A DNA stretch of 64,000 nucleotides from Lama guanicoe (GCA_013239625.1 MU053792.1:1134112-1198111), one strand, 5' to 3'. Numbered from the stretch's first letter, positions 18,035-49,707 are shown. Notes: generated by a model not told the origin, from the sequence alone. Made by a program: numbers and translations.

Positions 18035-18166
18035 GGGCGGGGGTATAGCTCAGTGGTAGAGTGCGTGCTTAGCATGCACAGGGTCCTATGTTCAATCCCC
18101 AGTACCTCCATTAAATAAGTAAACTTAATTACCCCTCACACACACAAAAAAAAACCCACAAAAAAA
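18035..18166 (+). mobile_element. tRNA-Ala-derived SINE, camelid Vic-1 type
   Basis: gggcgggggtatagctcagtggtagagtgcgtgcttagcatgcacagggtcctatgttcaatccccagtacctcca has A and B boxes, followed by an AT-rich body and A tail. Confidence 0.85.
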
Positions 18167-19108
18167 TTTTTTTTCACCATCCTTACTACTAAGTACCTGA
18201 AACTCAGAGACCAGTTAGATTTGGGTAACTCAGTAGCCCCCCTCCCCTCCGGCTGAAGTTCTGCCATCTGAACTTGAAAACTAAATAGATTCATACATAT
18301 ACATACACACATGTATCATTGATCAAAAACTTGCCTGGAAACAATTCCATCTAATAGCACTCAAATTTAAAGGGATGTGAATAGGGCTAATGATTATTTC
18401 ATTTTATGGGGAAGATAAATATGCCATCAGTGTTGTAGTTGGGGATTGGCAAAGAGTCTGGACATCTCTCCAGTTAATATCAGGTGACTCCCTTATCTCT
18501 GTTTATATTAGAGTATTTACCTTTGCAAGTGCCTCACCTGTATCAAGCTATTCAATCCTCATAATATAAACTTATAGAGTAAGTCCTATTATGTCCATTT
18601 TACTGATAGGGAAAAGAAGGTACTGAGATGCTAAGCAACTTAGTAAAAGATTGTACCATTGTACAGTGGACCCCATATTTGAGCCAGAAGCCTAGATCCG
18701 GAGCCTGAAGTCCGCTCTACTAAATTCACTGATAATGCTGTCAATGTTTTCATGTAAGCAATTCTGGGGCAGGGTTGATTGGGTCTGGGAGCCTTTGTTT
18801 GTAGCTTTTGAGCAGATTTCATGAAATAATGCCAGGTGTGTAACCAACACCTGGGTTTAACACAATTCTATTTTGCCATATTTACCTCACTTATTTTTTT
18901 ATCCCAAAGATGCTGCTAAATACCTCCTACCCGAGTCCTAGTCCTTTCTCTCCAGGAATAATCACTTGTAGTTTTATGAACTTAGCTACTTGTTAATGCA
19001 TCCATGGTCTCTTAAGTAGTGTTGTGTACTTATGTCGCACATTTTCCTATTAGAGTTGAAACATCAGGACTGGATGTCTGGGTATTAAAAGTGGCAACAG
19101 TGTGAGAA

Positions 19109-19630
19109 TGTTACCGAGCCCAAACATTCTGCTTGCCGCACACAGGCCAATAAATCGTGAGACAAAGTGATGGGGCAAGGAATGGCAACTTTATTCGGAA
19201 AGCCGGCAGACCAAGAGGATGGCAGAATAATGTCTTGGAGAACCATCCTCCTCCAATCAGAATACAGGCTCCTTTTACACAGAAAAATGGGGGAGGAGGT
19301 GTGGTTGGTTGGTGCAAACTTCTTGCTGCAGGAATTCTCTGTTCTTGCAGCCGTCCATGTGGGTCAGGCCATGGTGTCCCTGTAAACCTCCAACAAAACA
19401 AGGTTATTCTCTATTTTGCAACTGGCCATCTCTAGGTAAGTGCAGAATAGCTAACTAACATCCTTAAAGGTCAGAGCCCCAGAATAGGCTCTCTCTCCTG
19501 TGTATTTCAGGCTAAAGGCAACATTGTTTCACAAAAGGAGCAGAGCTGGCAAGACTAAGCCTAGAAAACAGGGCACAGTGGTTAGAACTTAAAGGAACAG
19601 ATCCAATGTGGAGTCAGATTCTCTATTACA
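19109..19630 (-). mobile_element. Solo LTR, ERV1 type
   Basis: TG...CA termini, 4-bp TSD AGAA (19105-19108, 19631-19634), TTTATT (minus-strand AATAAA) at ~19190. Reverse-complement similar to 20396-20910 and 54666-55065. Confidence 0.85.
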
Positions 19631-19789
19631 AGAATGCTCAGCTCACTTAGGCAGAAACTTCTCAAAGGAGATTATACGTACCCCTAGGGATAGGCAGTCA
19701 CCCTTAGGAGTTAAAATAAGACACCTAGAGGCATTCATTTTATCTAAATTTTTGGAAAGAATCTTTTTTCCTGTTTTTTTTTTTAATTG

Positions 19790-19955
19790 AGGTATAGTCA
19801 GTTTACAATGTTGTGTCAGTCTCTGGTGTACAGCACAATTCAGTCCAACATGAATATACATATATTCATTTTCTTACTCTTTTTCACCATGAGCTACTAC
19901 AAGGTATTGAATATATTTCCCTGTGCTATGCAGTATAGACTTGTTTATCTGTTTT
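19790..19955 (-). mobile_element. Short L1 3' terminus
   Basis: Poly(T) then aattgaggtatagtcagtttacaatgttgtgtca. Same family as 22375-22808 and 25660-26600. Confidence 0.75.
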
Positions 19956-20395
19956 AAGATCTTTGCTTTTGTTATGAGTTTAACGTATGTTCTTGATGAC
20001 ATGCCAGAGTTCTGTTGGTGAAAACCATCATAGGGTTTAAAAGCCAGTTGTTTATAGTGAAGAGAATATCATTCTCTTTGGATGTAGCTGATTGTTTAAA
20101 ACAGAAACTAATACTTTATTCATAGACTTTATATTTTAGAGTGAGCTTTGCTTTAAAATATACTTCATATTTACATTGAAAATTTTAATTCCACTGGATA
20201 GGAGTCATGCAATCATTAAACTGACAGTCAATACTTTTGATACGTAAGATGGAAAAACTATAGATCACAGCGTGACTACCACTAACTCTTAGATTTCATT
20301 TGGCATTTCCAAACCACTGCTCTGAGTTCCTTGATGTTGCCACTTAATGGTCACTTTTAAATTGGCATTAGGGGTGCTTTTAAGCTGTGTATAAG

Positions 20396-20910
20396 TGTAA
20401 CAGAAAAAAAAAAAATCTGACTCCATATTAAGATCTGTTCCTTTGCCTTTAAGCCTGTGCCCTGCTTTCTAGACTTAGTCTTTCCAGCTCTGCACCTTTT
20501 GTAGAATAATGTTGCCTTTAGCCTGAAATATACATGAGAGCCTATTTGGAAGGCTCTGACCTTTCAGGATATTGACAATTGCACTCATATAATGATAAGT
20601 TGCAGAATAGAAAATAATATTTGTTTTGTTGGAGGTTTTACAGGGACACCATGACCTGGCCCACGTGGACAGCTGCAAGAAAGAATCCCTACAGCAAGAA
20701 GTTTGCAACAACCATCCACACTCCTCCCCTTTTTAGAAGAAAAGGAGCCTTAATTCTGACTTAGGAAAGTTGGTTCTTGAAGACATTCGTCTGCCATCCT
20801 CTCAGTCTGCCGGCTTTCCGAATAAAGTTGCTATTCCTTGCCCCAAAACCTGGTCTCCCGATTTATTGGCCTGTCATGCAGCAAGCAGAATGAGTTTGGA
20901 CTCAGTAAAG
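20396..20910 (+). mobile_element. Solo LTR, same ERV1-type family
   Basis: Starts TGTAACAG, has AATAAA at 20821 and ends ...tttggactcagtaa. Imperfect TSD taag/gaag. Confidence 0.8.
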
Positions 20911-21369
20911 GAAGCTGTTTATTAGTTTTCTCTTTCTGTGTATGTGTAGCTACTAAAAGTAAAAGACTAGACCCTTTTATCCCAATAAATTTAATTTTGT
21001 TTAAAGCAAATACAGTGTGAATGAGCTAAAGACTTTGATAATAATCAATACATTTGAAACCTGATATTAACTTAGGGACTTAAAATAGGTCTAAAATAAA
21101 CTGGTAGACAATAAAATACTTCCAGTGCATGGTAATTAAAACAAAGAGATAGCCTGAATCTTTTAAGCATAAATTTATTAGCTCTATTAGCTCAAAAATT
21201 CACTCAAATTAGGCTTTTGCTCCATTCTGCCACTGAAGTTTTTTTCCCCCCCACACAGAAGACCTTCATATTGCCAAGTCCTTCGGACAACAGTAGCCTT
21301 CACTCTTCATTCTCACTGCTCATCTTACTTGACCCATCAGCAATATTTACCTCAATGCAAATGCTCTGT

Positions 21370-21730
21370 GTTAGGGACTGGATGTCCGGGTGACCCCCAT
21401 TCATATACTGGAACTATGCCTTCCAATATGATCATATTCAGAGGGGGGCCTTTTGAAGGGGGTGGTGATTAGAATTCGGTGAGATCAAGAAGGTGGTGAC
21501 CTTATGGATGAGTGCCTTTATGAAAAATCATGAGAGAACTTGCTCCCTTTCTCTGCTTCTGCCATGTGAGCATACAAGACATCTGTACCCAGAGAGGACT
21601 CTCGCCAGAACCTGCCCGTGCCTGCATCCTAATCTTGCACTTCCAAATTCCAGAACTGTGAGAAATAAGTTTGTGTTGTTTATAAGCCACCCAGCCTATG
21701 GTCTTCTGCTATAGGAACCAGAACTAGGAT
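21370..21730 (+). mobile_element. MaLR LTR (MLT1-like)
   Basis: ccagaactgtgagaaataa..tgttgtttataagccacccagcctatggt is the typical MLT1/MST 3' motif. Confidence 0.75.
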
Positions 21731-22374
21731 ACCCTCTTTGATACAGCATCTTCACCTGGATCCCAGGAGACAGTGCCAGTCAAGTTTCCTCCTGCTCATT
21801 CGTCATCTTCTCTCAGTCTCCTTTCCTGATTCCTTTTATCTCCCCAAACCCTAAATTTTAGAGGCTCCCAGGTCTCAGTCCTCAGGTCTCTCCTCTCCTC
21901 TTTCTATTACGACTGTCTTTAAATACACTGATGGTCCCCAAATCTAAGTCTCCAGCCCAAACTGCTCTGCTGAATTCCAGGCTCCTCCTCTTTCTCTACT
22001 TAAAATCCTCACTTGGATGACCCACCCACAACACATTACGTTCAAAACCAAAATCTTGTCCTCTTTAAAACTTTTCTCAGTCCTCAGTCATCTCCCCATA
22101 GTAAATATAAATTCTATTTTTTCAAATGACTGGGTTAAAAATCTTGGAGTTCCCCTAAGTCCTGACTTTCTCTTATACCCCACATTTATAGACAGTCCAT
22201 CAGCAAGTAGCATTGGCCATCCTTTTAAAGTATCTGTAAATCAGACTACTTTTCATTATCTCCAAAATTACCATTCTTCATGTGGAATATCGCAGCAGCC
22301 TTGTTGGTATCCTTGTTTTTGTCTATTTAACTCAAAATTTTACTTTTTAACAAAAAGAGAAAATGATCCTTTTA

Positions 22375-22808
22375 TTTTTTTTTAATTGAAGTATAGTCAG
22401 TTTACAATGTTATGTCAATTTCTGGTGTACAGCACTATTCTTCAGTCAAACATTAATATATATATTTTCATGTTCTTTTTCACCGTGAGCTACTACAAGA
22501 TACTGAATTTATTTCCCTGTGCTATACAATATGAACATGTTTATCTATTTTATATATACCTGTCGGTATCTACAAATCTCGAACTCCCTGTCTGTCCCTT
22601 CCCACCCCTCTCCTCACTGGCAACGACAAGTCTGTATTCTGTCTGTGAGTCTGTTTCTGTTTTGATATAAATTCATTTGTCTTTTTTTTTAAGATTCTAC
22701 ATATGAGTGATATCATATGATATTTTTCTTTCCCTTTCTGGCTTACTTCATTTAGAATGACATCCTCTAGGGCCATCCATGTTGCTACAAATGGCATTAT
22801 TTTATCAC
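22375..22808 (-). mobile_element. L1 3' end with TSD
   Basis: Minus ORF MPFVATWMALEDVILNEVSQKGKEKYHMISL. TSD AAAATGATCCTTTT at 22360-22373 and 22809-22822. Confidence 0.9.
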
Positions 22809-25659
22809 AAAATGATCCTTTTAAAACTTAAGTATGATTATATGCCTCTTTCATTCAAAACTCCACATGGTCTCCCAAACTTCTCAGACTGAAAACCAAA
22901 GCCATTATCATGGCTTACGGGACCTTACATTGTCTGCCTCCACCCTTGCTACTTCTTTGACCTTATCTTCTACACTGTCTCCCTCTCTGACTCTGCTCCA
23001 CCTATACTGACCTCCTTTCTCTTCTTCAAATACACCAAGCAAGTTTCTTCTACCTCAGGAACTTTGCAAGAAGCTCAGAGAACGTTTCCCCAGCTATACA
23101 CATGGATCAGCCCCTTACCTCCCTCTGGCCCTTGGGCAAATGTTATCTGGTCAATAAAGCCTTGTCAGCATCCTAACTGAAAAGACGCCTTCTTTTGTAA
23201 TTGCTATCCCCCATACCCATGTATTTTTCCCACAGCACTCATTATGCTCTGATACATTAATTACATCATTTTGCTGAGGTTTCTGGGATATTATCTGTCC
23301 CCTGATCCCCCATTAAATATCAGCTCCATGAGAGCAAAGATTGTAGCCTGTTTTGTTCATGGCTACATCCCTATTGCTTTGCTCGGTAAGTATTTGTTGA
23401 AATACTGAACACCTTTATAGCTTTATGTTATTAACTTTTCTCTGAGATGTCTTGAATGTTGTTTAGCAATTTTTTAATCTTCTGTAGTACAGCATTCTAC
23501 CAGAGAGATTTCCCTTTCGTATGAAAGCAGCTTCTAGTTGCTTTTATTAAAATAATAGTCACTAACACTCACATTGTGCTTACCCTGGCCTGAATGCTTT
23601 GCCTATAATAGTTACAGGCAGTATAACAACCCCACAGAGTAGGAGCTATTTTAACATCTATTTTACAATGAGTTGACAAAGAAAGTTTAAAATACACAGT
23701 GAGTAAGTGGTGGAGCCAGGGTATTTCAAACCTAGAGAGTGTGGCTGTGAAGTCTGGGCTTTCAACCATAGTGCTGTACAGCTTAGAGACAGAAGCTCAC
23801 TGTCAAGCAGGTCTGCAGAAGAGGTAAATAGACACTGGCCTGTGATTTAGGGAAGCCAGCCCCTTCTAGAGTTGGAGTCAGAGTGTTCTTTAAAAGGACT
23901 GGGTAAGTTTGTGTAAGAGTATGAGTATTTGTATTCGTGTATGAGTATGTGGGCATTCTAGGGGGACAAGAACTATGAGTTGATACTCTGGTGAACTAGA
24001 ATGATGGGAAAAGTGGATGATTCTTACTGTCGTGGTGAGAGACTGAACCAGAAACAGCTTTGAGTTGTGGCAGGGGCAGTGGTTCTGCTTCCGTGAGGCA
24101 GCATGTCCTGGGCGTGGTCCTGACTCAGCCAACTTGCTCTTCAGGAAATTTAGTAACTAGGCAGGTGAACCCCCCCCCCAAAAATGGCTCCAGAAAAACC
24201 TCAAAACCTTTGGGCCCATCAGGGCAGGAAGTCATTTCAACCGAATCTATAATTCCCTCACAAAGCCTCTGAAGAGTTTCTCTTACAGAACTGCCGTCCC
24301 CAACAGTCCTCTCTTTAGTTCTTACTATTATTTCTGACATGTTTCACCTCACAGCAAGAACGCCACAGTCACCAGCCCCTAAGGAGACTGGAATTCTGCA
24401 AACTGACTTGAGCATACCACCCTGGAGCTGCCTACGCCTTATGAATGTGCGTAGGGCAGGGGCTGACGGAGCACTGAGCCCTGGCGTCCTCTCTGAGCGT
24501 GACGCTGGGGAGTGGACGCCTCCACCCTCAGAGGATCTTCACAGCTGTGATAAGATGCTATCTTACTCCTGTAACTACAGAGATCCAGTTACCGTGCTCC
24601 CAGAACAGCCTGCTGAAGCCAACTTTAAATGTCCAGCTGCCATAATCTACTTAGCAAATTGGTTTAGGGCAAAACTGAAATCCAGTCCTGCTTTTGACGT
24701 ATAAAAGAGGAGAGAGCCTACGAGAGATGTGGAGTGAGTCCGAACTTCCTGTCCCACCTGACAGGTGCTAACGCCAAGCACAGCATTGACAGGGACCCTT
24801 TAATTGGACTCAGACCTGTGACCAGCTACACTTCGCAGTCCATCACAAATATGATCTTATTGATTTTCTTCAGATTAAATTTTAAAGCGCTGTTTCAGCA
24901 TTCCCTTGCCTTGATCATAATTTGTATGTTGTTATTTCTGGATTGATATCTCTGTCTCCCCCCACAAGCCAGTAAATTCCTCAAGGATGGGAAGCATTTC
25001 ATGTTGTTCTTCATACAATGCGACTTACTTATCTGTGCCTAACATTACAGAACTCTCACTGCATGCTTGATCATTGAAGGGCTGAATGAATAAGTACATG
25101 GATGGAAAGAGAATATGTCTCTTTTTCAGATTATGTTATTGCTACCAGTTACACATTTTCTCTTAAAACCTTTATCAAAAATGGTATATGGAAGGACGAA
25201 TTTGTGGCAGATATTTTAGGATAATCACTTTCAAAAAACATGTTTCCTTCATGCAAAGAAGGAATCTAACACAAATATGTTAAAGCAATTGAGTTGAATT
25301 TATGCAACAGAGGAAATCAACGTTAGTGGAAACAGTACACGAGTTTATTGTCCCATTTTTTGCCACTGAACTTGAACAAGGACTGTGACTTCCAAAGCCC
25401 CTTCTGGCTTTTCAATTCTCTAGTTCCGTGAATTTATGGGTGGAAGTCAGCTACAAATATATTTCCCAATTAAATTAGTGAAAGTGCAAGCAAAAACACC
25501 CCTCAAAGCACAGTGCATGTCTCTAAACAACCAAAGAATAAGAACAATTCTGTCAGACTCTTTTGGAGATGGATTATTTTGCAATTCTAGCACCAGTCTC
25601 AGAAAAAGCTATTGCTTGACTATTTGACTCATGATGGATCTACATGGAAACCCGTCTAC

Positions 25660-26600
25660 TTTTTTTTAATGAGTTATAGTCAGTTTACAATGTGATGTCA
25701 ATTTCTGGGGTACAGCACAATGCTTCAATCACACATGAATATACACATACTCATTTTCATACTGTTTTTCACCATAATCTACTATAAGATATTGAATATA
25801 TTTTCTTGTTCTATACACTATAAACTTGGTTATCTATTTTACATATACCAGTCAGTATCTGCAAACCTCCCCCTGGCAGCCACAAGTCTGTATTCTAAAT
25901 GTGTGAGTCTGTTTCTGTTTACATATAAGTTCATTTGTCTTTTTTATTTTAGATTCCACATATGAATGGTATCATATGGTATTTGTCTTTCTCTTTCTGG
26001 CTTACTTCACTTAGAATGACACTCTCTAGGGCCATCCATGTTGCTGCAAATAACATTATTTTATCATTTTTATGGCTGAATAGTACTCCATTGTATAAAT
26101 ATACCACTGCTTCTTTATCCAGTCATCTGTCAGTGGACATTTAGGTTATGTCCATGTCTTGGCTGTTGTAAATAGTGCTGGTATGAACATTGGGGTGCAA
26201 GTGCCTTTTTGAATTAAGGTTCCCTCTGGATATATGCCAAGGAGTGGGATTCCTGGGTCATATGGTAAGTCTATTCCTAGTCTTTTGAGAAGTCTCCAAA
26301 CTGTTTTCCACAGTGGCTGCCCCAAACTGCATTCCCACCAGCCGTGTAGGGGGGGTTCCCTTTTCTCCACAGTTTCTCCAGCATTTGTCATTGGTGGACG
26401 TTTGAATGATGGCCATTCTGACTGGTGTGAGGTGATACCTCATTATAGTTTTGATTTGCATTTCTCTGATAATTAGTGATACTGAGCATTTTTTTATGTG
26501 CCTATTGGCCATTTGTATATCTTTTGGAGAAATGCTTGTTTAGGTCTTCTGCCCATTTTTGGATTGGGTTGTTTGTTTTTTCCTTATTAAGTTGTATGAG
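25660..26600 (-). mobile_element. L1 3' fragment (ORF2 C-terminus and 3'UTR)
   Basis: Minus ORFs ..[25 protein letters not shown].. and ..[29 protein letters not shown].. are L1 ORF2p C-terminal motifs. Confidence 0.92.
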
Positions 26601-26805
26601 TTAATTTCCTTTCTGATACTTCTTTCAACCTGGGTCCAGGGGATTTTGGTTTTGCCTCGAGGTAGGAAGAAACGGGGAAAGTCTGGCTCTTACAACTTCA
26701 TGTGCTGCCCTGAATCAGGTTTATTGTCTTCGAACTGAGTTCATTTCAATTCCTCCTCATCCACCCCATTCTCCAAGTCCAAGCAGATGATCAACAAATG
26801 CAGAC

Positions 26806-27731
26806 TTGCAGGAACAGCCCGAGCCTGTTCCTGCAGGAGACACAGAGCCGGGACCCATTCCACCAGCCCTGCAGGGAGACCCCGCGCCTGCTCCTGCAGC
26901 TCCTCCTGCACCTGCACCTGCACCTCCAGGCCACCAAGAGCCAATTCCAGCATCACCCTCTGGGGCTGAGCCACCTCTGCAAACACCAACACTGTCCTCT
27001 CCGAATTCTCAGCATCCACACCCGCCCCCACCCAAACTTTACTTCCCTTCCCCTGGCTGGATTGTCTGTAATTCCTTTTTTTTTTATATCATTTATGGTA
27101 TCCTCTATTTTTATGTTTTAAATATACAGTAAGAAAGTTTACCCTTTTCCCATTTTAAATTGTGCAATTCGGGAGCACTAAGTGCACTCAAAACGCTGTG
27201 CGACCAGCACCACTGTCTGCTTTCAGACTGTTTCCTTCCTCAAGTAAAAGCTTGTATCCAAAGTTCATCCCCCTTCCTCCCTCCCGCAGCCCCTGACAAG
27301 CCCTCATCCCCTTTCTCTCTCCGTGTCTTTACCTATCCTGGAGATTCCCTAGCAATGATATCATACAAGAAGTGGCCGCTTGTGTCTGCCCACATATCTT
27401 AAGCAGGGACTGTTACATTTTTTTCTTTTTATGTGAAATAGCATTTTGGTTATTTGAAAAGGAAATCAAGATGGACAAAAGATGAGAAGCACAGAATGAA
27501 GCCCACTTAGTAACTCTGTGCAGCATCTCGGGGGAGGCGCTGCTGTTCTTAGTGTGAAGCCAGAGCCAGAGGGAGATGCTTAGCATCTCCTGTGGCAAAA
27601 CCAAACCAAACAAAACCAAAAAACAAAGGGCAAGAAAGAGAGCTGGAAAGACAAACCACAGCCTGGAAAAATAATTCCTCATGACCTGAGGTCAGAGAAT
27701 GGTTTCACATCCCTGTGGTCCAAAAACCTCT
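26806..27731 (+). repeat. Truncated duplicate of the 3' end of the RalGDS-like repeat locus (copy A)
   Basis: One to two 63-bp units (EPVPAGDTEPGPIPPALQGDPAP) followed by sequence collinear with 34617-35488. Both copies end at ccctgtggtccaaaaacctct. Confidence 0.9.
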
Positions 27732-28118
27732 GCTGAGTCTGTGCACGAGCTCCCTGTGATGCCAGCCCACGGGGGTGACAGGTGCGGCAGGTGTTTCTTG
27801 GTCTACAGACAGGATGGCTTCTCTAGGAAGCAGGGGCTAGAATGATCCCCACTATGCCGATGGGGGACTGGGGAGACCCTGAGAGGCACGTGGCTTGTCC
27901 AGGGTGACAGCACTACTGAGAAGGGGGAGCCAGGTCTGAACCCGGCTGTGTCCTCAGAGCTGCAGCCCTGGCTGCACCCAGGCCTCCCCAGGGCTATGGG
28001 GGGTCTGAGTTGGTGTCACTGTGTGCGGACAAGGCATGGGGTGGGAAGTGGGCTGTCGGCAGCCCAGAAAGGCCCTTAGGGAGCTGTGTGTAAGGAGGAA
28101 GCTTGGGGAAAGGGACCC

Positions 28119-28148
28119 CAGGAAGTGACCTCACTTCCCTGGCAATAG
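28119..28148 (+). promoter_or_regulatory. Candidate promoter: palindromic ETS-CRE-like-ETS element plus RFX X-box-like site
   Basis: GGAAGTGA-CC-TCACTTCC is a perfect 8-bp inverted repeat with central TGACCTCA, directly followed by CCTGGCAAT, ~100 bp upstream of the ATG at 28235. Confidence 0.45.
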
Positions 28149-28234
28149 AGCCCAAGAGAACTTGGAACCTAGGTCACCAGGCACCCGCTCTGTAAAGAAG
28201 CCCCTACTCATCTCACTTGGTTGGAGACAGAGGC

Positions 28235-28369
28235 ATGTTCCGCTGGACCCCAATATCCCGAGGCCGCAGCCTCCGGAAAGCCCGCAGCGAGGGGCTGTAC
28301 CAACGCTGCCGACACTGGGTCAGGTCTCACCCCAGGCGCCTCTGGCCTTTTGGCCACAGGGGCCCAAAG
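28235..28369 (+). pseudogene. RalGDS-like paralogue, first coding exon
   Basis: ATG..AAG|gtaacc, 45 codons, MFRWTPISRGRSLRKARSEGLYQRCRHWVRSHPRRLWPFGHRGPK. Resembles the basic 'MF..P.S.G..LRKA..CRHW....RRLWPF' N-terminus of lineage-expanded mammalian RalGDS-like proteins (recalled). Confidence 0.7.
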
Positions 28370-28775
28370 GTAACCCAGGGAGGCCCAGGGCAGGCCCGCC
28401 CAGGCCGGGCCACCCCTCAGATCCCACCCAGATAGCCCCACGGCCCCTTCCTGGTGAGGCAGGCATGTTGGGGGGGGTCCTGCCTAAAGCAAGAGCAGGC
28501 TAAGGAAGGGTCAGAGGCCTGGGGGGCCGGTCACGTCCATAGCCCAGGTCAAAGCTGGCTGGCTGGGATGTGGAGAGCCGGGGCAGGGCCCTGCAGCCAA
28601 GGTGGTGCCCATGCCCTCTGGTGTGTCTCTTCCCTCCCGGGTGACCGTCTCAGCTGATAAGGTCTCAGCCTGATCTGGCAGCAGAGGGTCAAGTGGGCAG
28701 AAGCAGGAGCGGTACTGGCCAGGCAGGGCTCTGAGACCTCTGGGTCTGGCCGGCTGTTGGCCACTGTCATTGCAG

Positions 28776-28883
28776 AGACGGGCACTTTAAGCCACATAGG
28801 AGCTGGTAGATGAGGACATCCATGCCAATTCCCCGGGTGAGGGGCTGCTACACCACACTGCCGAGGCCCAGCACAGGCTCCAG
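28776..28883 (+). pseudogene. RalGDS-like paralogue, second exon with two in-frame stops
   Basis: ttgcag|..CAG|gtgagt, 108 bp, phase 0/0. Translates RRAL*AT*ELVDEDIHANSPGEGLLHHTAEAQHRLQ, versus RALGDS SSTQEIGEELINGVIYSISLRKVQLHHGGNKGQRWLG (recalled). Confidence 0.65.
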
Positions 28884-28997
28884 GTGAGTGTGGACACAGA
28901 GGGGTCCACAGAACCATGGCCCAGAGATGACCGGGGCAGGCCTCCTGCCCAGACACCACCCAGGCCTCTCCCCAGGGTCCTGCCCGGGGCTGACAGG

Positions 28998-29091
28998 CAG
29001 CTCAGCACCCCCAGCTCCGACCTAGAGCACCGTGCCCACTTCACTGTGAGTCAGGTGGAGGACCAGGAGCCCGCTGAGGCAGAGCCCAAAG
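28998..29091 (+). pseudogene. RalGDS-like paralogue, 3' part of the REM-domain-ending exon
   Basis: QLSTPSSDLEHRAHFTVSQVEDQEPAEAEPK versus RALGDS QLNMPGSDLERRAHLLLAQLEHSEPIEAEPE (recalled). Phase-1 donor G|gtgaga at 29092. Confidence 0.8.
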
Positions 29092-29350
29092 GTGAGAAGG
29101 GCAGGGCTGGGTGCATGTGTGTAGCTGACGGAGGGGCGAGGGTAGGGCCACACAGGGAGGTGTCCCCAGAGACGGCTGTTGGCACCAGCACAAAGACTGG
29201 CCTCAGACCACCTGTCTGGGAGAATGCAGTCACACAGCGCATCCTGTGGGCACTTCCTGGGTGGGACCTGTCTCGAAAGCTCTGGGAAGATTTGTCCTTG
29301 AAAAGGCACATGGGCAGCAGGCAGGTGGGTAAATTGGTCCTCTCTCACAG

Positions 29351-32300
29351 CACAGGCACTTCCACAAAACTTAAAGCTGTCTTCACTTCCAACGGATCCA
29401 GATCCAGAGGAGGCGGGGACAGGGGAAGACGCCAAGGACAAAAGAAATGAAGAACCCAATCCAGCAGGAGCTGCAGAGCAAGATGAGAAAATACCACGCC
29501 GGCAAAGAGGAGTTGCACCTGCTCCTGCAGCGGACCCAGGACCAGGTCTCATTCCACTAGGCATGCAGGGACACTCTGAACTTGCTACTGCAAGAGGCGC
29601 AAAACACGGTCCCATTCCACCAGCCCTGCAAGGAAACCATGAACCTGCTCCTGGAGGAGACCCAGGACTGCGTCCCATTGCACCAGCCAGCAGGGAGACA
29701 CTGAGACTGTTCCTGCCAGGAAACACAGAGCCAGGTCACATTCCACCAGCCTTGCAGGGGACGCCGAGCCTGCTCCTGCAGGAGACCCACAGCCCGCGGC
29801 TGCAGGAGACTCAGAGCTGGGTCCAATACCACGAGGCCTGCAGGGGGACCACAAGACTGCTCTGTCAAGAGACCCAGAGCCAGGTTCAGTTCAACCACCT
29901 TTCAGGGAATCAACAAACCTGCACCTGCAGGAGATCCATGACTGGGTCCACTTCTACCAGACTGGCAGGGAGACACTGAGCTGGGTCCAATTCCACCTGC
30001 CTTACAGGGAGACTGCAGGACTGCCCTCACAGGAGAGCCAGAGACGGGTCATATTCCAATAGCCCTGCAGGAAGATCCAGGGCCTGTTACTGTGGGAGAC
30101 CCAGGAACGGGTCCAATTCCACCAGCCCGGCAGGAATAGTCTGAGCCTGCTCCTGAAGTAGACACAGAGCCAAGTCTCATTTCACGAGCCTTGCAGGGAG
30201 ACCCTGAGCCTGTTCCTGCAAGAGACACAGAGATGGGTCACATTCCACCAGCCCTGTCGGGAGACCTGAACCAGATTTTGCAGGAGACCAAGAGCTGGGT
30301 TACATTCCACCAACCCTGCAGGTAATACCTCAGCCTGTTCCTACTGGAGACCACGGCCCAGGGGCAATTCTATCAGCCATGACAGGAGGAAGACAAAGGA
30401 CTGTGTCCTCTTCCATCAACTCCACAGGGAGACATCTAGTCTGATCTGCAGGAAACATCCAATCTGATTTTCGGGAAACACAAAGCAGTGTCACATTCCA
30501 CCAGCCCTGCAGGGACACCCTGAGCATGTTCTTTCAGAAGCCCCACACCGGGGTCACATTCCACAGGCCCTGCTGGAAAACCTGGAGCTGGCACCTTCAA
30601 GACACCCAGGACTGGGACCAATTGGAACAGAACTGCAGGGAGACCCTGAGCCTGCTCCTGTAGGGGAAACCAAGATGAATCCTATTCCAACAGCCCTGCA
30701 TGGAGACACTGAGCCAGCTACTGCGGCAGACCCAGGGCTGGGTCCAATTCCACAAGCCCTGCAGCGGAACCCTGAGACTACTCCAGAGCCGGGTCCAGTT
30801 CAGCCAGCCTTCCAGAGACATCCCAGGATACCTCCTGCAGGAGAAACAGAGCCAGAGCCAATTTGATGAGACCCACAGGGAGCCCCCCAGCTTACTATGC
30901 CCCGAGACCAAGGACTGGGTCCATTCCTCCAACACGCATGGAGACACCGAGCCTGAAACTGTAACAAACACAGAACCAGATCACATTCTACCCTTTTACA
31001 GTGAGCCCCCAAACATGCTTTTGCAGGAGACCCTTGTGTGGGTCCCATCCCACCAGCATTGCAGGGAGATCTTGAAACAGCTCCTGAAGGAGACCCAGAG
31101 ATGGGTCCCACACCGCCAGCCCTGCAGGGAAACCCCGAACCTGCTCCTGCAGGAGACCCCAGAACGTGTCCAGCTCCATAGGCCTTGCAGGAAGATTCAG
31201 AGACGGGTCCCTTTTCACCAGCCTTGCAGGAAGACCCTGAGCCTGCTCCTGCAGGAGACCCAGAGATGGGTGCAATTCCACCAGCCCTGCTAGGACAGCA
31301 TGAGCGTGTTCCAGTAGGAGACACAGAGCCATGTCCACTTCAACAACCCTGCAGGAAGACCCTAGGCCTGATGCTGCAAGAGAGCCAGGATTTTGTCCCA
31401 CTCAATCAGCCCTGCAGGGAGAAGTGGAGCGTGCACCTGCAGGAAACACAGAGCCGGGTGGCATTCCACCAGCCCTCCACGGAACCCAGGAGCCTGCAGT
31501 GGCAAGTTGCCCAGGACAGGGACAAATTCCACTAGTCCTGTAGGGAGACCGCAAGCCTACTCCTGCAGGAGAACCACAGATGGGTCATATTTCAACAATC
31601 CTGCATGGGGACCCCGAATCTGCACCAGTAGGAGTCCCAGGAATGGGTCCAGTTCCACCAGCCCTGCTAGGAGAGCCTGAGCGTGTTCCTCCAGGAAACA
31701 CAGAGCTGTGTCCAATTCCAACAGCCCTGCAGGGAGACAGTGAGACTGCTCCTGCTAGGAAACACAGGGCCGGTCACATTCCACCAGCCTTACAGGGAGA
31801 CCCCAAGTCTGCTCCTGTAGGAGATCCAGAGACTGGTCACATTCCACCAGCCCTGCAGGTAGACCCTGAGCCAGCTACTGCAGGAGACTCAGAGCTGGGT
31901 CCAATTCCACAAGCCCTGCAGGGGGACCCCACGTCTGCCCCTTCAGGAAATCCAAAGCTGATTCCAATTCAACCACCTTTGCAGGAAGTCACCGAACCTG
32001 CACCTGCAGGAGATCCATGACTGGTTCTGATTCTACCGGCCCAGCATGGAGATACTGAGCTGGTTCCAATTTCTCTAGCTTTACAGGGAGACCCCAGGAC
32101 TGTTCCTGCAGCAGATCCAGAGATGGGACACATGCCACCAGCCCTGTCACGATACCCTGAACCAGCTTCTGCATGAGGTCAATTGCCAGGTTACACCCAC
32201 CAGCCTTGCAGTTAATACCTCAGCCTGCTCCTGTAGGAGACACAGATTGGGGTCCAATTCTGTTGGCCCCAGAGGGAGACTCCCAAGCTATTCCTGCAGG

Positions 32301-34907
32301 ATATCCAGGCATGAGTCCTATTCAATCAACCCTGCAAGGGAACACCAAGCATGCAGCGGCAGGAAACAAAGAGCAGGGTCACATTCCAACAGCCTTGCAG
32401 GGAGACCATGAACCTGCTCCTGTATGAGAGCCAGAGACCTGTCACATTCACCTAGACCTAACGCGACACCGAGCCTGTACCTGAAGGAGATCTATGACTC
32501 GGTCCCATTACACCGGGCCTGCAGGGAGAACTCAAGTGGGTCAAGCTTGATCACGTAGGAAACCCAGAGATGGGTTAAACTCCAAGGGCCTTGCAAGAAG
32601 ACCGAGAACCTCCTCCTGTAGAAGACCCAGGACCAGGTCCACATCCACCAGCCCTGCAGGGAGAGCTGGAGGCTGCTCCTGCAGGAGACACAGAGCCAGG
32701 TCTAATTCCACCAACCCTCCTGGGACACTCCTAGCCTGCTCCTCCAAGAGACACAGGACTGGGTCCCATTCCACCAGGCTTGCAGGGAGATACTGAGACT
32801 GCTCCTGCCAGGAAACAGAGAACCAAGTCCCATTCTACTAGCCTTTCAGGGGAAGCCCAAGCCCGTTCCTGCAGGAGACCCAGAAATGGGTGCAATTACC
32901 CCAGCCCTGCTAGGACAGCATGAGCGTGTTCCTGAAGGAGACACAGAGCCACATTCAATTCCAACAGCCCTGCAGGGAGACCCTGAGCCTGCTCCTGCAA
33001 AAGCCTAAGGACGGGGTCCCATTCCAGCAGCCTTGCATGGAGACACTGAGCCTGCTCCTGCAGTAGACTTAAGACTGTGTTCCACTCCACCAGGCCTGTA
33101 GGAAAACCTTTAGCCTGGTCCTGCAGGAAACCCACATTTGAGTCACATTTTACTAGCCCTACAGAGATACCTGGAATCTGCACCTTCAAGAGACCGAGGA
33201 ACAGGATGAAATCCAACAGCACTGCAGGGAGACACTGAGCCAGCTACTGTGGGAGACCCAGGGCTGGGTCCAATTCCACAAGATCTGCAGGGGGACCCTG
33301 AGACTACTCCAGAGCCGGGACCAATTCAACCAGCTTTGCAGGGAGACCCCAGGACACCTCCTACAGGAGAAACAGAGGAGGGTCATGTTCAAAGAGCCCT
33401 GCAGGAAGACCCAGGGCCTGCTCCTGAAGGCGAACCAGAGATGAGTCACTTGCCATCAGCCCTGCAGGAAGACAATCAGTCACTAGTCTAACTCTGCCAG
33501 ACCTGCAGGGAGACCCTGAGACAGCTCCTGCAGGAGAACCAGAGTAAGGTCGTATTCCACCAGCCCTCAAATGAGTCCTTCAGCCTGTTCCTCTAGGAAA
33601 CCCTGAGCTGGTTCGCATGCCAGCAGCCCTGCGGGATAACCCTGAACCTGTTCTCGTAGGAGAACCAGAGATGGGTGCAATTCCACCAGCCCTGCTCTGA
33701 GAGACTGAGCCTGCTCTTGCAGGAGACCCTGAGACGTGTCACATTCCAACAGCACTGAAGTGACACACCCAGCCTGCACCTGCAGGGGACCCAGGAAAGG
33801 ACCAATTCCACTGGACATGTAGGGAGACCCCAAGCCGGCTCCTTCAGGGGAACCAGAGGTGCAACATGCTCCAGCAGCCTTGCAGGAAGACCCAGGGCCC
33901 GTTCCTACAGGAGACCCAGGAATGGGACCAAAGCCAGCAGCGCTGCAGGGAGAGCCTGAACCGGATACTGCAGGAGACCAAGGACTCGACCTCACTCCAT
34001 TAGCCACACAGGGAGACCTTGAGCCCACTGCTGAAGGAGACACCGAGTCGGTCCTATTCCACCAGCCTGAAGGGAGAGTCCAAACCCACTCTTGGGGAGC
34101 AAGAACTATTGCTGGATTCTAATCGACCATCCCTGCAGGTAGACCACAAACCTGCACCTGCAGGAGTCCCAAGTTTGGATCCATTTCCACCTGCCCTGCT
34201 AGGAGACCCAGGACTATGTCCCATTCCAGCAGCTCTGGAGAGAAAACCTGAACCTCTTCCTTCAGGAGACCCACACCCGGGTCATATTCCAACAGCACTG
34301 CAGGAAAACCTGAGTCGGCTTCAAGATACCCAGGACTGGAGCCAATTCCACACCAGCCCTGCAGGGAGACCCTGAGCCTGCTCCTCCAGGACACCCAAAA
34401 CTGGATCCCATTCTATCAACCCTGCAGGGAGACAAGAAGACTGCACCTGCAGGAAACAGAGAGCAAAGTCACATACCATCAGCCCTTTAGGAAGACCATG
34501 AGTCAACTCCTGCAGGAGACCAACAGCCTTGTGACATTCCACCAGCCCAGCAGGTAATCCCTCAGCCTGCTCCTGCAGGAGACACACAGCAGCATCTAAG
34601 TCCATCAGCCCCCGAGGGAGACCCCGAGTCTGCTCCCACAGCTCGTCCTGCACCTGCACCTCCAGGCCACCAAGAGCCAATTCCACCCTCTAAGGCTGAG
34701 CCGCCTCTGCAAACACCAACACTGTCCTCTCCGAATTCTCAGCATCCACACCTGCCCCCACCCGGACTTAACTTCCCTTCCCCTGGCGACGTTTACAACT
34801 GGGTTGTCTGTAATTTCTTTCTTTCTTTTTCTTCACGTCATTTATGGTATCCTCTATTTTTATGTTTTAAGTTTACGGTAAGAAAGTTTACCCTTTTCCC
34901 ATTTTAA
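29351..34907 (+). pseudogene. RalGDS-like paralogue, giant Pro-rich exon (frameshifted and nonsense-disrupted)
   Basis: Acceptor tctctcacag| at 29350 is phase-compatible with the 29091 donor. The frame reads QALPQNLKLSSLPTDPDPEE..APAPAADPGPGLIP into the repeats. Many frameshifts and stops follow. The tail frame 34617-34907 is open to TAA. Confidence 0.65.
29510..34685 (+). repeat. Degenerate 63-bp tandem array, roughly 80 units
   Basis: Consensus by eye CCACCAGCCCTGCAGGGAGACCCTGAGCCTGCTCCTGCAGGAGACACAGAGCCGGGTCCAATT, reading PPALQGDPEPAPAGDTEPGPI or HQPCRETLSLLLQETQSRVQF. The 21-aa period is visible in the ORFs at 30700, 31580 and 33859. Unit count is length/63. Confidence 0.95.
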
Positions 34908-35488
34908 ACTGTGCAATTTGGGAGCATTCAGTGCACTCACAATGCTGTGTGACCAGCATCACTGTCTGGTTTCAGACTATTTCCTTCCTTAAATTGAAAC
35001 CTTGTATCCACAGCTCATCCCCCTTCCACCCTCCCCCAGCCACTGAAAAGCCCTAATCCCCTTTCTCTCTGTGTCTTTACCTATCCTGGAGGTTCCCTAG
35101 CAATGACATCATATAAAAGGGGGCTTTTTGTGTCTACCCACATGTTTTAAGCTGGGGCTGGTGAATTTTTTTGTTTTTACATGAATTAGAATTTTTGTAT
35201 TTTGAGAGGAAAATCAGATGGACTAAAGATGAGATGTACAAAATGAAGCCCTTTTAGTAACTATGTGCATCATCTCGGGAAGGCACTGCTGTTCCAAGTG
35301 TGAAACCAGCACCAGAAGGGAGATACTTAGTACTTCCTTAGCACTTTGGTGACAAAACCAAACCAAACAAAACCAAAAAACAAAGGCCAAGAAAGAGAGC
35401 TGAAAAGACAAACCACAACCTGGAAAAAGCATTCTTCACAACCCAAGGTCAGAGAAAGGTTTCATATCCCTGTGGTCCAAAAACCTCT
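34617..35488 (+). repeat. 3' flank of the array, duplicated at ~26877-27731 (copy B)
   Basis: Collinear high similarity to copy A, including the shared old L1-like remnants. Confidence 0.9.
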
Positions 35489-36835
35489 TCAAACCCAGTG
35501 TTCTCAACAGAAACAGAACACACACGGGCAGTTCCAACAAGAGGCAGCGCAGGTGGCCAGTGTGTGTTAGATGCTCGACCTATCGGGTGAGGACACAGGC
35601 AGACGGACACACTGCGGGACAGCACTGGTCACCGTCACACTGGCAGGTCTTTAGCCTGGTGACAACCAGCCCTGATGATGTGAGGATGCAGAGGCCCCAG
35701 CAGCTCTCCTGGAAGGAAGAGTGACTGGACACTCCTCTCTGGGAGAACAGGGTGCAGGACGCATCAGTGTGCCACAGGTGCATCCCTTCCCCAGAAGTGC
35801 TGGTCCTTAGAGTTGATCCCACTAAAATTCTTCCACAATTTTTCAAAGATGTCTTTCAAGGGTGTTCATCACAGCCCCGGGTGAACTTGTAGGGAATTGG
35901 GAGCAATACTTATGTTCATGGAGCGGGCGTAGGATCTATCAGTTCTGGTTCACATGGACAAATGACTGCTGTACAGCTGGAAAAGTGAGTGTGTGGTCTC
36001 TACCTGACGTCAGAGGAGCCCTCAGGTTCGATGCTTGTCGATCCACCGTCTGCCTCCAGGATGCCATCTCTCTGACCACGTATGTGTCAAGTCACCAGAG
36101 GTGTAAATGAATCCTGTGGTGTGCAAGAGACAGAGACAGCGATAGAGACAGAATGAGACAGAGGCTGATGAGCACCAAACCATTCATGGCGGTCACTTCT
36201 GGGAGTGGGATTTGCAAATCTCCACTCTTCTCCTTTAGGTGACGTTTCAATTTTTTTTTGTGTGTATGGCTTTACTAATTCTAAAAGATTCAAACCATAT
36301 GTTAATTGGGACCCATTCATTTCTCATCTATGGAGTAGTTAAATGTCATTATTTCTGTTTTAAAATATTTGTTACAGGGACAATAAGCATTGATGAGAGT
36401 AAAATGATAAATTCTAAAGAATTAAGAATCAGGTAAAGAACAAAATCATTTGGTGACTGAGTCACAGGCCAGCTATGTGGCAGCACATGGCAGGGTGGAG
36501 ACAGGTTTCTCCAGGAGGATGTGTATGTTCTGCATCCACTTTCAATAGAAGCGAGGAAAAAGTACAAGGCTTGTACACTGAGAACTACAACAGCTTGTTG
36601 GAGTAATTAAGAAAGACCTAAATTTGCAGAAAATAATCCCATATTCATGGAGTAGAAGGCTTAATTCTATGAAGATGGCAATATTCCATGAACAGATCTA
36701 AAGTTTCAAAGAGTCCCTCCCCAAATCTCAGGTGGTGTTCTGCAGAAACTGACAACCAATCTACACTTCATGTGGAAAAGGCAAAAGGCTCAAAAAAGGT
36801 CAGGGAATCTTGAAAAAGAAGAACCAAGTTCAAGG

Positions 36836-39800
36836 TATGGAAAGTCAGGCTGAACCCATGGCTGGTATAAATACACTTTCAGCTGAAGATGCCTGAGATT
36901 CAATAGATGCAAAAGAGAACCCTTCTTGGAGCTCCCCTTATCTGAATAAATGTAGAAAATTCTGAGAAATGACCAGCGCCATCAATTCCCTCATCAGTGT
37001 GGCTTCTAATCCCAGGAGAGAGACCAAGAGTAAACCTGCCATAAATCCCTTCTGCAAGGCGGTTTATGAGCCTGAAGAAGATGCAAAGATCACTCATCTG
37101 TGTACTGGCAAACATTATCACAAATGTTCTTATATCCCCTTGTTTTCCAAAGAACCCATTTGTCTTTCTGGAAGAAACCTGTAATAGAAGCCAGTTCTCG
37201 CCTCTCCCTCTGTCCTGTTAAATTAGCTTGACAAAAAGCCTTTAACTTTCACCATTGAACATGGTAGTTACTTTTCTGGTTGGCTCCTGCGTGTGTATAA
37301 ATAAACCGTTTCTCTCATTCATCTCCTCTTTACTTCTGTGGGCTCTGTGGGAGGGACTCTGGATGATGGGGACCTGCTCTTCTCTCACCTTCTTTACTGA
37401 CATCTTTTGGTTCGTGGTTAAGCTCTAAAATGGCTCATTGGTTTAGAGTCACATTTGGAACATGTATATCTTTGGAGACCCCCTGGGAGGGAAAAAGGGT
37501 TCAATACTGCTGGGAGGATTCACTGGTCATCCTGGCCAAATGCCTGATGAGACAATATTTTCAAGGTTTTTGTTTTGTTTTGTTTTGTTTTGTTTTAAGA
37601 TTTTCACCCTAAATCAAAAATCCTTTTGATACCTCTTGGATGATCTAATTGAAAGACAAAGGAGAATCACAGCTGGCCTAAGAGCACCTCCTTAACAAAG
37701 CACAGAAATCAGATTTAGAGCAAAAATTAAAATCCATTTACACCACCAACCCTCTCACCCTTTTGTAGACTGTCCTCATGTAATCTTGACAGCCCCCTGG
37801 AGAAAGTCCTCACCTAGATCGCAAATGGTCAGACCCTTTGCCTGGACCTCATGCTCATTTTCAGAGCTTGGCCCAGTGGAAGGCTGGTCCCCAGGGCCTG
37901 AGAGGGGCTATGTGTGCGGCCTTCCCTGCTGAGACCCACCAGGCTGAAAGGGAACTGTGCGCTCTGAGGGAGAGAGCGAGCACACTGAGCCTCTTTGGAA
38001 AGATCTCTGAGAGCATCCCAAAGGCACACAGCTCTAAATCTGGACACAGGAATCTTGATTGGCATCTTTGTTGGAAATCTCCTCCTTGAGAGAAAGCAGC
38101 AAATTCAGGATGGTGAAGTTGGATGGGCAGGTCAGTCTCTTGTAGTTTATCACTAAGGAGAGTATGCAGTTCTCTCAAGAATTTAAAACAATGATTCTTG
38201 CCTTACTAACCTCATCTAGAGAGAAACAAACATGGCTCTAAGAGTAATTCACAGCCCACCCACCCTTCTTGCGGATATTAGCATCTCCACTTGCTTCTCT
38301 TCTCAGGGCACTGGAGAAAGGACTGCCCTACACCTCTGACAACAGGAAATATGCCCCAGAATTTCTTCTTTTAAAAGGCTTGCATCCTACCTCATTCATT
38401 CTCTTCTGACAGCAAGAGCTGTGTTCTCCAGGTCTGAGAAGCAAGTCTTTAAATAAGAACATCCAATGAAATAACTGTAATTTGAGGGTGTCCTGCTTTT
38501 AAATGTGCTTCTTAACTCCCGTCACAAAATAGGAGACATTTAATTCTTCACCTGATAAGTGCAATGAAAACCTCTTCCCTTCTCCAATCCCTGGCTGCCA
38601 GCAACTCAACATCACAATGCTTTCTTCCTCTGCACGCCCAGCCATTGAGAGTAACTTAGTCCACTAAAATCGGCACTTGAGACTGGAAAGCAAAAGGCTA
38701 ATTATAGACAAACTGAATATCTTATCCACTCAGATTGGCTTTAAAAAAAACACCAAGATGACCACATGTCACTTCCAAAAATTTCTTTGCCCAGAATTTA
38801 GTCTACAGCCTCCATAAATATTGACATATCAGGGCAAATCTAAATTTTGAAGGTCTTCTCCACAAATACCAGTACAAACCTGTAGCTCTCACTAAGCAAG
38901 TAATCTTTCTTATTCCATCTACCAGAAGCACAATTCAGAGCCTACTGTTGTCTATAAACAGCTGATTTTTATATTACTCAGTTTTACTGACTCATGGCTG
39001 AGATTTTGGAAAGAAAGCTGTTATATGTATTTGCATTTGTATTATGCGTACTTTTTATTATGGGGGGGGGAGCCCACAATTATGAACCTATAAGGTTATG
39101 GGGAAAAGTAGTTCTCCTCCTGTACACATGCAGTGAAATACTATGGGGTCAGTTCAGAATGGAAAAAAATAAGATGTAACAGGAAGAGAAAAGACTTTGT
39201 CTTGGATGTCAAACTGGTTAAAATTCAATGAACTTATAAGTTTTGTTTGGTTGGTTTTTAATGAGCCCAATCGTGTACTGATGCAAAATCAGAACATGGC
39301 TTTTTTAAATCTCTGTTAAATTGACTAATTTTCTCAGATTGTCTCCTTTAATAAGAAATTATAAAAGATTTCTCTTTGCCCTTTGAAGAACCTGCCTAGG
39401 AAACAAGGATTATGTGTCTTAAAATAACTTCCTCTGCTTCCTGTTGTCTTTATGGTGTCTTTGATTAGAAAAGGAAGTCAAGCTTTCTCAATACTGAAAG
39501 AGCTATGTGGGTTTTTTTTTTTAACAAAATATTACCTTCTATTTTTGTCTTTTAAATCTTTTATTGTCCCTTTGGTTAAATAGATAACTAAGTATTATTT
39601 CATAGTGATCTGTGATTCTATTTAATCAAATGTTCAGAGTTTGACATTTTGGACAACTTCCTAAAATCAATTCCAAAATAAAGTTTTATTGACTTTGAAC
39701 TGACTGAGATTGCCCAGAGGGCTCCTGGAAAATCTCAAAAGATTTGTTCTCTCACCTGGTAAAAAGAGAGATGTTAAACAAATTAAGTTTCCATGCTGTG

Positions 39801-48583: not shown

Positions 48584-49140
48584 ATTCCATTCCTCCTGGG
48601 TATATATCTGGAAAAAAAACAAAACAATCAATTTGAAAAGATACATACATACATACCAATGTTCACAGCAGTATTATTTATAATTGCCAAGATATAGAAG
48701 CAACCTAAGTGTCCATCAACAGATGAATGGATAAAGAAGATATAGTGTCTATTTATACACAAAGCAATACTACTCAGCCATAAAATACACTGAAATGTTG
48801 CCATTTGCCGCAACATAGATGGATTTGTAGGGCCTTGTGCTGAGTGAAATAAGTCAGACAAATTCTGTAGGATATCACTTACATATGGAATCTAAAAAAC
48901 AAAACAAACTAGAGAATATAATAAAAAATGTAGACTCACAGATATAGAAAACAAATGGATGGTTACCAGTGGAGGGGAGGGGAATTTGGGGGTGTGAGAA
49001 TGGGGGGTACAAACTACTGGTTGTAAGACAGGCTCAAGGATGTCTTATACAACATGGGGAACATAGCCAATATTTTTTAGTAACTGTAAATGGAAAATAA
49101 CCTTTAAAATTGTATAAAATGTTTTTAAACATAAAAATAT
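48584..49140 (+). mobile_element. Younger L1 3' end nested in the older L1
   Basis: attccattcctcctgggtatatatc..caacctaagtgtccatcaacagatgaatggataaagaa interrupts ORF2 at aaatatatgtgcacc, which resumes at ~49150. Confidence 0.8.
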
Positions 49141-49553
49141 ATACATATGCACCCACCACCAGAGCCCCTAAGTATAGACAGCAGACACCTACAGATCTAA
49201 AGGGAGAAACAGCCATGCAGTAACAGCAGGAGACTTGACTACACTTCCAATAATGGGTGGAACATCCAGACAAAAGTTAATAAGGAAAGGGCAGAGTTGA
49301 ACACCACTATAAACCAATGGGCCAAACAGATACACATCGAACATCCAATAGCAGCACAATGCACTTTCTCCTCAAGCACACATGGATTCTCCAGGATAAA
49401 TCACATTAGAGACCACAAAACAAGCCTTGACAAATTTAAGAAAACTGAAATCATTCCAAATGTCTTTTCTGACCACAATGGAATGATATTTCAGGTCAAT
49501 AACAGAAGGAAAATGGGGAAATCCACAAATACTGCAAATTAAACAACACACTC

Positions 49554-49707
49554 TTTTTTAAAACTCCTTTTTAAAAAATCATTTTTAGGGGTAGTTAATT
49601 AAATTTATTCATTTATTTTAATTTTTTAAATGGAAGTACTGGAGATTGAACCCAGGGCCTTGAGCATGCGAAGCACATGCTCTACTACCGAGCTATACCC
49701 TTCCCTG
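49554..49707 (-). mobile_element. Vic-1-type tRNA-derived SINE
   Basis: Reverse complement of the 18035 element (tggaagtactggagattgaacccagggcc..ctctactaccgagctataccc). TSD TAAACAACACA on both sides. Confidence 0.85.

Follow-up and report, generated by a model that had tools for sequence, protein, structure and literature searches.

Duplicated gene families that expand while their last coding exon gains tandem repeats are a kind already known, and the closest working analogue of the locus described here is the NPIP (morpheus) core-duplicon family. According to the report on it, this family is lineage-expanded, its last coding exon contains an expanding in-frame variable number tandem repeat (VNTR) of ~20 residues, and some members have a predicted membrane segment (bioRxiv 10.1101/2025.02.04.636496). 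The likeness that we claim is one of workings only, and the MFCC start that both have in common is taken as a coincidence; moreover, the NPIP VNTR is young, open and present in cDNA, whereas the array treated here is old and broken. This array, a decayed 63-bp tandem repeat at 29486-34640 on the plus strand, lies in a window of 64,000 nucleotides (the whole stretch that we analyzed, one strand) from Lama guanicoe (GCA_013239625.1 MU053792.1:1134112-1198111). The locus is a dead member of a RALGDS-derived duplicated family that lacks the RasGEF domain. We consider it probable that, within this broken copy of the camelid family, a 63-base piece of the last exon was multiplied in place, and that the resulting 84-unit array decayed without measurable constraint.

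Human RGL4 is presumably a member of the RalGDS-like group. It is described as a lineage-variable member (PMC3141262). Annotated RalGDS-like models have in common with the locus a new first exon, the next RALGDS-derived exon, the end of REM, an intron and the linker-exon acceptor, and the family-specific first exon was detected with an exon-1 profile in those of donkey, horse and rabbit. The rabbit protein, however, retains RasGEF (E 7e-44), whereas in the window's subfamily most of REM is deleted and neither a CDC25 nor an RA domain is present. Closer still are alpaca RefSeq/UniRef models called 'uncharacterized protein' or 'skin secretory protein xP2-like' (XP_072796879.1, XP_072816817.1), with the same exon 1 (71-78% identity), fused exon 2 and last exon, and with a hydrophobic tail in four of the six scored; they differ from the window copy in being open, 267-381 amino acids (aa) long, with short 9/27-bp Pro/Ala repeats, no 63-bp array and names without RALGDS. 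The same RasGEF-less build was found in bat 'fibrous sheath CABYR-binding protein-like' entries (XP_054583337.1, XP_066089168.1) and in Molossus hypothetical proteins, which consist of a head exon, an exon 2 reading through into the old intron (a deletion junction common by descent being judged from protein alignment only), an EAEP end, a Pro/Ala/Glu stretch and a hydrophobic C-terminal segment (KD19 2.0-2.9). These bat proteins are 29-39% identical to the family protein P0002, and no 63-bp unit was seen in them. Open members thus go under unrelated automatic names in alpaca and bats.

The RALGDS ancestry claimed in an initial annotation of the window, made from its sequence alone, was borne out by alignment, introns included, to the genome's own RALGDS gene, which lies on contig C1217 and has an RA exon identical at 32/32 positions to solved RalGDS. 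Window positions 28489-28990 match this gene at 59% (E 4e-18) and 28956-29308 at 62% (E 3e-17), with exons and introns in the same order. Homology thereby extends to the segment ending at 29091, for which the lack of a RALGDS-family match had been named in advance as the result that would overturn the claim. Since the two target regions are ~2.5 kb apart in RALGDS and abut in the window, and since a second subfamily in the same genome retains the exons between them, the window's subfamily arose by an internal deletion, which brought together an exon, ~90 bases of intron and the latter half of the last REM exon. Furthermore, when 11 repeat-poor paralogues were combined into a profile, its match to RALGDS ran through the linker-exon acceptor plus ~10 bases and then ended (E 3e-26), and the exon holding the array does start at that acceptor, as had been proposed. 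No match to the RALGDS locus was obtained with exon 1, nor to RALGDS with the 3' tail. The exon labels REM and linker are our assignment, which we take partly from the known RALGDS domain order and partly from the alignment to the genome's gene. The subfamily is a RALGDS duplicate with a new first exon, in which the deletion put the latter half of the last REM exon behind the first bases of an intron, and in which the last exon begins at the RALGDS linker acceptor and ends in a hydrophobic tail instead of CDC25.

The copy in the window preserves this layout on the plus strand. Its upstream, putative promoter side spans 27727-28234, paralogue alignments starting at 27727. Exon 1 (28235-28369) has 45 codons, an ATG and a GT donor, and encodes a family-specific head that begins MFCC- in most paralogues and MFRW- here. 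Intron 1 (28370-28775, GT..AG) is homologous in its 3' part to the RALGDS intron preceding the matching exon. The fused exon 2 (28776-29091) is composed of a RALGDS-derived exon (28776-28883), the read-through old intron (28884 to ~28970) and the 3' half of the last REM exon (~28970-29091). The following intron (29092-29350) corresponds to the RALGDS intron ahead of the linker exon (the 62% match above), and the last exon starts at 29351-29485 behind an AG acceptor, fully open copies using a second acceptor ~45 nt further in. After the array comes the family tail (34641-34907), a Pro-rich stretch with the remnant of a hydrophobic C-terminal segment, split over two frames, and then a 3' flank (34908-39144) common with paralogues that ends at 35856, 37143 or 39144 depending on the copy, so that the module extends from ~27727 to 35856-39144.

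Most of the splice sites proposed earlier were confirmed, namely the exon 1 donor, the acceptor before 28776, the phase-1 GT donor after 29091 and the AG before 29351, while a proposed exon start at 28998 was not, since no AG precedes it (the nearby AGs are at 28974-5, 28995-6 and 28999-29000). The intron assumed at 28884-28997 is likewise read through in the alpaca models and in all seven fully open copies; two exons, not three, therefore precede the array exon. Nor does the spliced frame lead openly into the array: it closes after 49 codons, with TAA at 28788-90 followed by TAG at 28797-99. Read from the last acceptor instead, the Pro-rich frame is lost at ~29689-29759, some four units in, and 208 codons are translated before the stop at 29977-79. 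Of the ~5,150 array bases, only ~980 are still in the starting frame. With these two stops, 36 indels and 22 in-register array stops in the Pro-rich frame, no open path leads from exon 1 to the tail, and the earlier view that this copy is dead holds.

The fused exon 2, the Pro-rich last exon and the hydrophobic tail, frame-broken here, place the copy in the RasGEF-less subfamily. When a RasGEF-bearing relative was used as the query, no CDC25/RasGEF exon was matched on the window's contig, and Pfam gave no match for any of 63 open reading frames (ORFs) of at least 105 aa elsewhere in the window, nor for the family proteins P0002, P0004 and P0006. A complete REM (RasGEF_N) is missing through the internal deletion, and the window's contig is not among 37 PF00618 matches. 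With no CDC25/RasGEF domain found and REM incomplete, the copy does not qualify as a functional RalGEF of the RALGDS/RGL1-4 type. Since CDC25 is lost altogether and REM for the most part, the array exon has also ceased to link the two. A search of solved structures with a 31-aa piece of the exon returned no matches. The second amplified RALGDS-like subfamily, in which REM exons are kept, comprises L073-L076 and L079-L081; the linker exon of L075 runs into stops, and the 10 kb examined held no recognisable RasGEF exon.

We then compared the locus with its paralogues. An 801-bp query returned 117 candidates, and all 40 that were scored matched, 39 of them being paralogues at 77-83%; the complete module recurs many times, frequently in head-to-tail order. 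The exon-1 profile matched seven alpaca protein clusters among 121 candidates and 32 representatives in a large library. Ten of its matches were looked up, and the named ones came from donkey, horse, rabbit (with RasGEF), four bat species and tamandua; P0029, one of the two unnamed entries, was dropped as a low-complexity false match. P0002 aligned to this genome at 94-98%, as fits a camelid close to alpaca. As suspected earlier, paralogues with an intact frame exist, although none has the 63-bp array: of the 41 distinct copies in which the 5' module is complete, seven keep canonical splice sites and a frame that stays open through the hydrophobic tail (268-670 aa), a proportion that is not an unbiased rate, the open copies having been fetched with an open protein as the query. 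Their last exon contains in-frame Pro/Ala/Glu repeats of 6 to 54 bp (9, 18, 27 and 36 bp among them) directly after the DPAGD-ELPP stretch. The longest open member (L110; G000:C6332:214000-223999, minus strand) encodes 670 aa with ~68 copies of an 18-bp Pro/Ala/Glu repeat, a stretch of up to ~1,250 bases or ~415 codons, followed by the hydrophobic tail. The introns of the open copies have diverged by 10-16%, and the survival of open frames across this divergence, together with the same build in bats, suggests function in the open copies. As judged from their sequences, these relatives likely make a membrane-anchored spacer protein, in which a disordered Pro/Ala/Glu stretch would be held by the C-terminal segment, and perhaps by lipid on the N-terminal cysteines. 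Pfam gave nothing meaningful for the family proteins and the ESM Atlas no usable match; P0002 residues 1-137, searched against proteins of 549-2000 aa, scored with none of 270 candidates, a weak negative. We found no paper on the family or the array in open-access full text.

The array itself was put at ~80 copies in the initial annotation, and cyclic alignment resolved 84 units with at least 36 aligned bases and 36 indels. The units have a mean identity of 77% to the consensus and 64% to each other, without a gradient along the array, and the unit core was not matched in any of 20 array shuffles. One frame of the consensus unit reads IPPALQGDPEPAPAGDPELGP, near the 21-mer given at first. With regard to the mucin-like protein also envisaged at first, the unit is, by eye, rich in Pro, Gly, Ala and acidic residues with no consensus Ser or Thr, and exon 1 lacks a hydrophobic leader. 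Words from 28200-31200, a stretch that is 57% array, were present at 0.77-0.88 in 15 of 24 listed sequencing runs (four organism labels and six studies; 13 marked DNA by guess and two without a kind), and the 5' third of the array is therefore not an assembly artefact. The term satellite was too strong for a 5.2-kb array of 64% pairwise identity with multi-unit matches on 16 contigs, which lacks the long, homogenised and high-copy character of satellite DNA. A near-consensus 45-mer was not found in the assembly at up to two mismatches, although fragmentation of the assembly may hide arrays. The array is a fossil exonic minisatellite, not a satellite.

Growth in place is indicated by the unit itself: it includes the last exon's own PAGDPEL-coding stretch, and therefore arose there. 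The unit core is absent from 15 of 22 colinear 10-kb loci and occurs 1-3 times in the other seven, and the counts at this same site run through 1, 2, 3, 6 or more, 47 and 84 units. The repeat-free paralogues show no clean insertion site, and the unit grows from the local DPAGDPELPP-coding stretch. At a single spot of the last exon, the open copies carry in-frame 9/18/27/36-bp repeats, and the broken ones have there either 1-3 of the 63-bp units or dozens. The unit matches itself best at offsets 24 and 39, and such internal self-similarity may have made the spot unstable; the 63-base piece was likely multiplied by slippage and unequal crossing-over.

As a rival, the array may have been an independent minisatellite or satellite that inserted into the exon. 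In its favour, no 5' exons are present in the 2.8-12.8 kb of sequence examined upstream of the other long arrays, and arrays without RalGDS-like flanks had been named in the initial annotation among the results that would overturn its claim; eight of these arrays nevertheless end in the family tail and 3' flank. Compared directly with the RALGDS linker exon, the unit also shows modest similarity (score 80, null 59 +/- 5), low-complexity exons scoring alike. Only one array, L057 with 14 units, has neither family flank, and with the exon's own coding stretch inside the unit and the series of counts at one site, an insertion is most improbable and already largely refuted. The arrays that keep tail and flank are 5'-truncated family copies. 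The other long arrays include a clade of ~47-unit arrays (L051-L056, L058, L060-L064), 94-99% identical among copies, without 5' exons and with the tail kept, which represent recent duplications of a stop-ridden array; the piece ahead of them we take, by eye, to be L1-like. Array fragments of 6 and 14 units are also present.

A 5'-truncated tandem sister copy at 26780-27731 (plus strand), with a single 63-bp unit (88% to the consensus), tail and 3' flank, lies 7.75 kb upstream of the main copy's tail, and its own tail is the nearest relative of the main one (87%). In a tree of 42 tails (midpoint root, many rows of skewed composition), the window, the sister and the long-array clade belong to a single supported group of 13, which itself lies within copies that have 1-2 units. 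No unit-by-unit colinearity was detected between the window array and that of L051 (score 7.9, shuffled mean 8.3), which prevents a relative dating of the two arrays. In three arrays, a 24-bp deletion has almost identical breakpoints, a hint that they have a 39-bp variant in common.

The initial annotation had envisaged a linker protein family of ~1,700 codons. This was not upheld, as the open paralogues have no 63-bp array, the long arrays are filled with stops, and no protein-level constraint was found. The ratio of nonsynonymous to synonymous changes (dN/dS) from the consensus was 0.90 (0.81-1.01) in the Pro-rich frame, against 1.04 and 0.93 in the other two. Nonsense changes numbered 21 versus 23.6 expected, and in L051, with a dN/dS of 0.92, 20 versus 19.3; these expectations use rates from the same array and take the units as independent, which internal duplications violate. 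Divergence at codon positions 1, 2 and 3 was 0.245, 0.223 and 0.217, with no third-position excess, and 21 of 25 small indels shift the frame, 19 being single bases. The array is thus neither kept in frame nor constrained as a coding VNTR would be. An alternative frame of protein-like look (LLLQETQ...) was also ruled out, at a dN/dS of 1.04 with 41 stops. Most of the array's history looks neutral, and we suppose that during that time the gene was dead or the array lay downstream of a stop; a brief coding phase may have occurred early on.

Several results weigh against this preferred reading. Besides the query bias in the sampling of open copies mentioned above, dN/dS among the open copies was 0.87 (0.60-1.31; 15 pairs), close to the 0.84 of broken copies (78 pairs). 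The units are 23% from the consensus (Jukes-Cantor 0.27), versus 0.13-0.19 root-to-tip in the flank (tree sums), and G/C sites differ by 23% in the array versus 5-14% in this copy's introns and flank. There are four possible sources of this excess: decay may have been faster in the array, paralogues may have homogenised their 5' part, founder variants may have contributed, or the array may have been coding early on. Stop-making C>T changes were rarer than non-stop C>T changes in the same context (6/83 versus 14/76, p 0.07), with p 0.62 when four arrays were pooled, and the large deletions are mostly in frame, 7/11 here and 6/8 in L051.

These results bear on whether the array was first a working giant spacer, part of a Pro-rich, tail-anchored protein of ~1,900 aa that persisted for a substantial time while its units diversified fast, and that died later. 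Such a history would account for a unit length divisible by three and the lack of stops in the frame of the exon, for the in-frame expansion of the same spot to ~415 codons in L110, and for dN/dS slightly below 1 in all four arrays measured (0.75-0.92); the array has also diverged beyond its flank, as exons 1-2 have beyond the introns in the open copies (dN 0.18 versus intron 0.11). Deletions of 24/39 bp are more numerous than those of 25/38 bp, but this bias is expected from the self-match of the unit (30 matches at offset 24/39 versus 22 at 25/38), and several deletions have one breakpoint in common and are hence not independent. The lack of stop depletion and of a third-position excess, and the predominance of single-base indels, also speak against it. 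No intact long 63-bp array was found in this assembly, and all 10 other translated arrays have stops in every frame; the repeat peptide had 96 matches, none of them an open long array, and their longest open frame, 362 aa, belongs to a locus where a gap separates the core clusters. Annotated proteins of 278-2000 aa gave no match among 5,907 candidates, a weak negative that proteins >2000 aa would escape, and all seven short 63-bp copies tested for frame (L031-L034, L043, L066, L067) are broken. We therefore regard a giant working spacer as unlikely, and in-place growth followed by unconstrained decay as the better account.

Transcript data were examined for signs that the locus remains functional, through RNA or through a short protein in other camelids, with its 5' part and tail transcribed and the array skipped, deleted or placed in a 3' untranslated region. 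Contigs from four RNA runs (two studies; two runs labelled reproductive system) are ~96-97% like the window and cover 13-14 of 30 bins, namely 27800 to ~29300, 34352-35600 and small patches; they thus span the 5' part and the tail with almost nothing between, although uncovered array bins prove nothing alone. All four runs have T>C at 28797, which removes the second stop, though the first may persist. The contigs also include introns and upstream DNA; DNA in the libraries is possible, and their source, 3-4% different from this genome, may be another species or a close paralogue. None of the three listed joints falls at 28369/28776 or 29091/29351. A joint at 28368-28640 in two runs was not counted as splicing evidence, as it may be either a splice from the exon-1 donor or a deletion, and an AG is present there in only five paralogue alignments. 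A still-working locus is accordingly very unlikely; what the contigs document is the presence of a close relative in libraries from the reproductive tract and elsewhere, and no spliced mRNA from the locus itself. In all four runs, contigs start exactly at 34352, inside a near-consensus unit, where a graph break, a splice, a deletion or an RNA end is possible.

We also compared the module with two published alpaca satellites, VpaSat05-8550 and VpaSat06, using the first 400 bases of each monomer. Their monomers are of kb size and likely correspond to whole gene modules, not to the 63-bp unit. A 28-mer from the VpaSat05 monomer start matched the last exon in 8 of 110 loci, a 20-mer matched both tails in the window, and the VpaSat05 reverse primer was exact in L107. 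The VpaSat06 forward primer spans the exon-1 donor and was exact in four loci and within one mismatch in 17 of 110; two other VpaSat primers gave no match. The motif and primer positions in the window are 27153-27172, 28360-28380 and 34902-34921, and others lie in L107-L110. Probes for both satellites are reported to label all centromeres, with a caution about artefacts, and PCR products to be obtained only in South American camelids (PMC13751797); the main text of that paper contains neither 'RALGDS' nor '63 bp'. From the sequence matches, the two satellites are likely tandem arrays of this gene, which, if so, changes how both are read.

What the locus adds to the known kind is a series at one site, from repeat-free copies through open 9/18/36-bp expansions of up to ~415 codons to dead 63-bp arrays of 1-84 units, in which the linker of a signalling protein is seen to become a repeat hot spot. 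A broader scenario, which we put forward as doubtful, is that before the bat-camelid split a RALGDS fragment gave rise to membrane-anchored disordered spacers (Cys-rich head, Pro-rich rod and C-terminal anchor) with their length tuned by one-exon repeats, that the family was amplified in camelids to the point where its gene arrays came to be catalogued as centromere-associated satellites, and that the present locus preserves, as a fossil, the extreme form of the family, a member of ~1,900 aa that was once translated.

Finally, some minor features of the window were recorded. Intron 1 differs from the family consensus at 12.5% of A/T sites and 5% of G/C sites, the reverse of the array, with GC-biased conversion among paralogues as a possible cause of the A/T-site excess. 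An LTR (long terminal repeat)-like stretch is visible by eye at ~36800-38200, within the 3' flank common to some paralogues. Rfam returned for the window just two weak tRNA-family matches, far from the locus, at 18039-18110 (+) and 49631-49700 (-), which are probably tRNA-derived repeats. The region 52000-62000 is GC-rich (51-62%), with no Pfam match in ORFs of at least 105 aa, which short exons would escape. Interspersed repeats at 7500-9000, 19000-26600, 46500-51000, 54500-55100 and 62000-63000 have many matches in other loci and also form direct or inverted pairs within the window, one of them adjoining the truncated sister copy near 26600.

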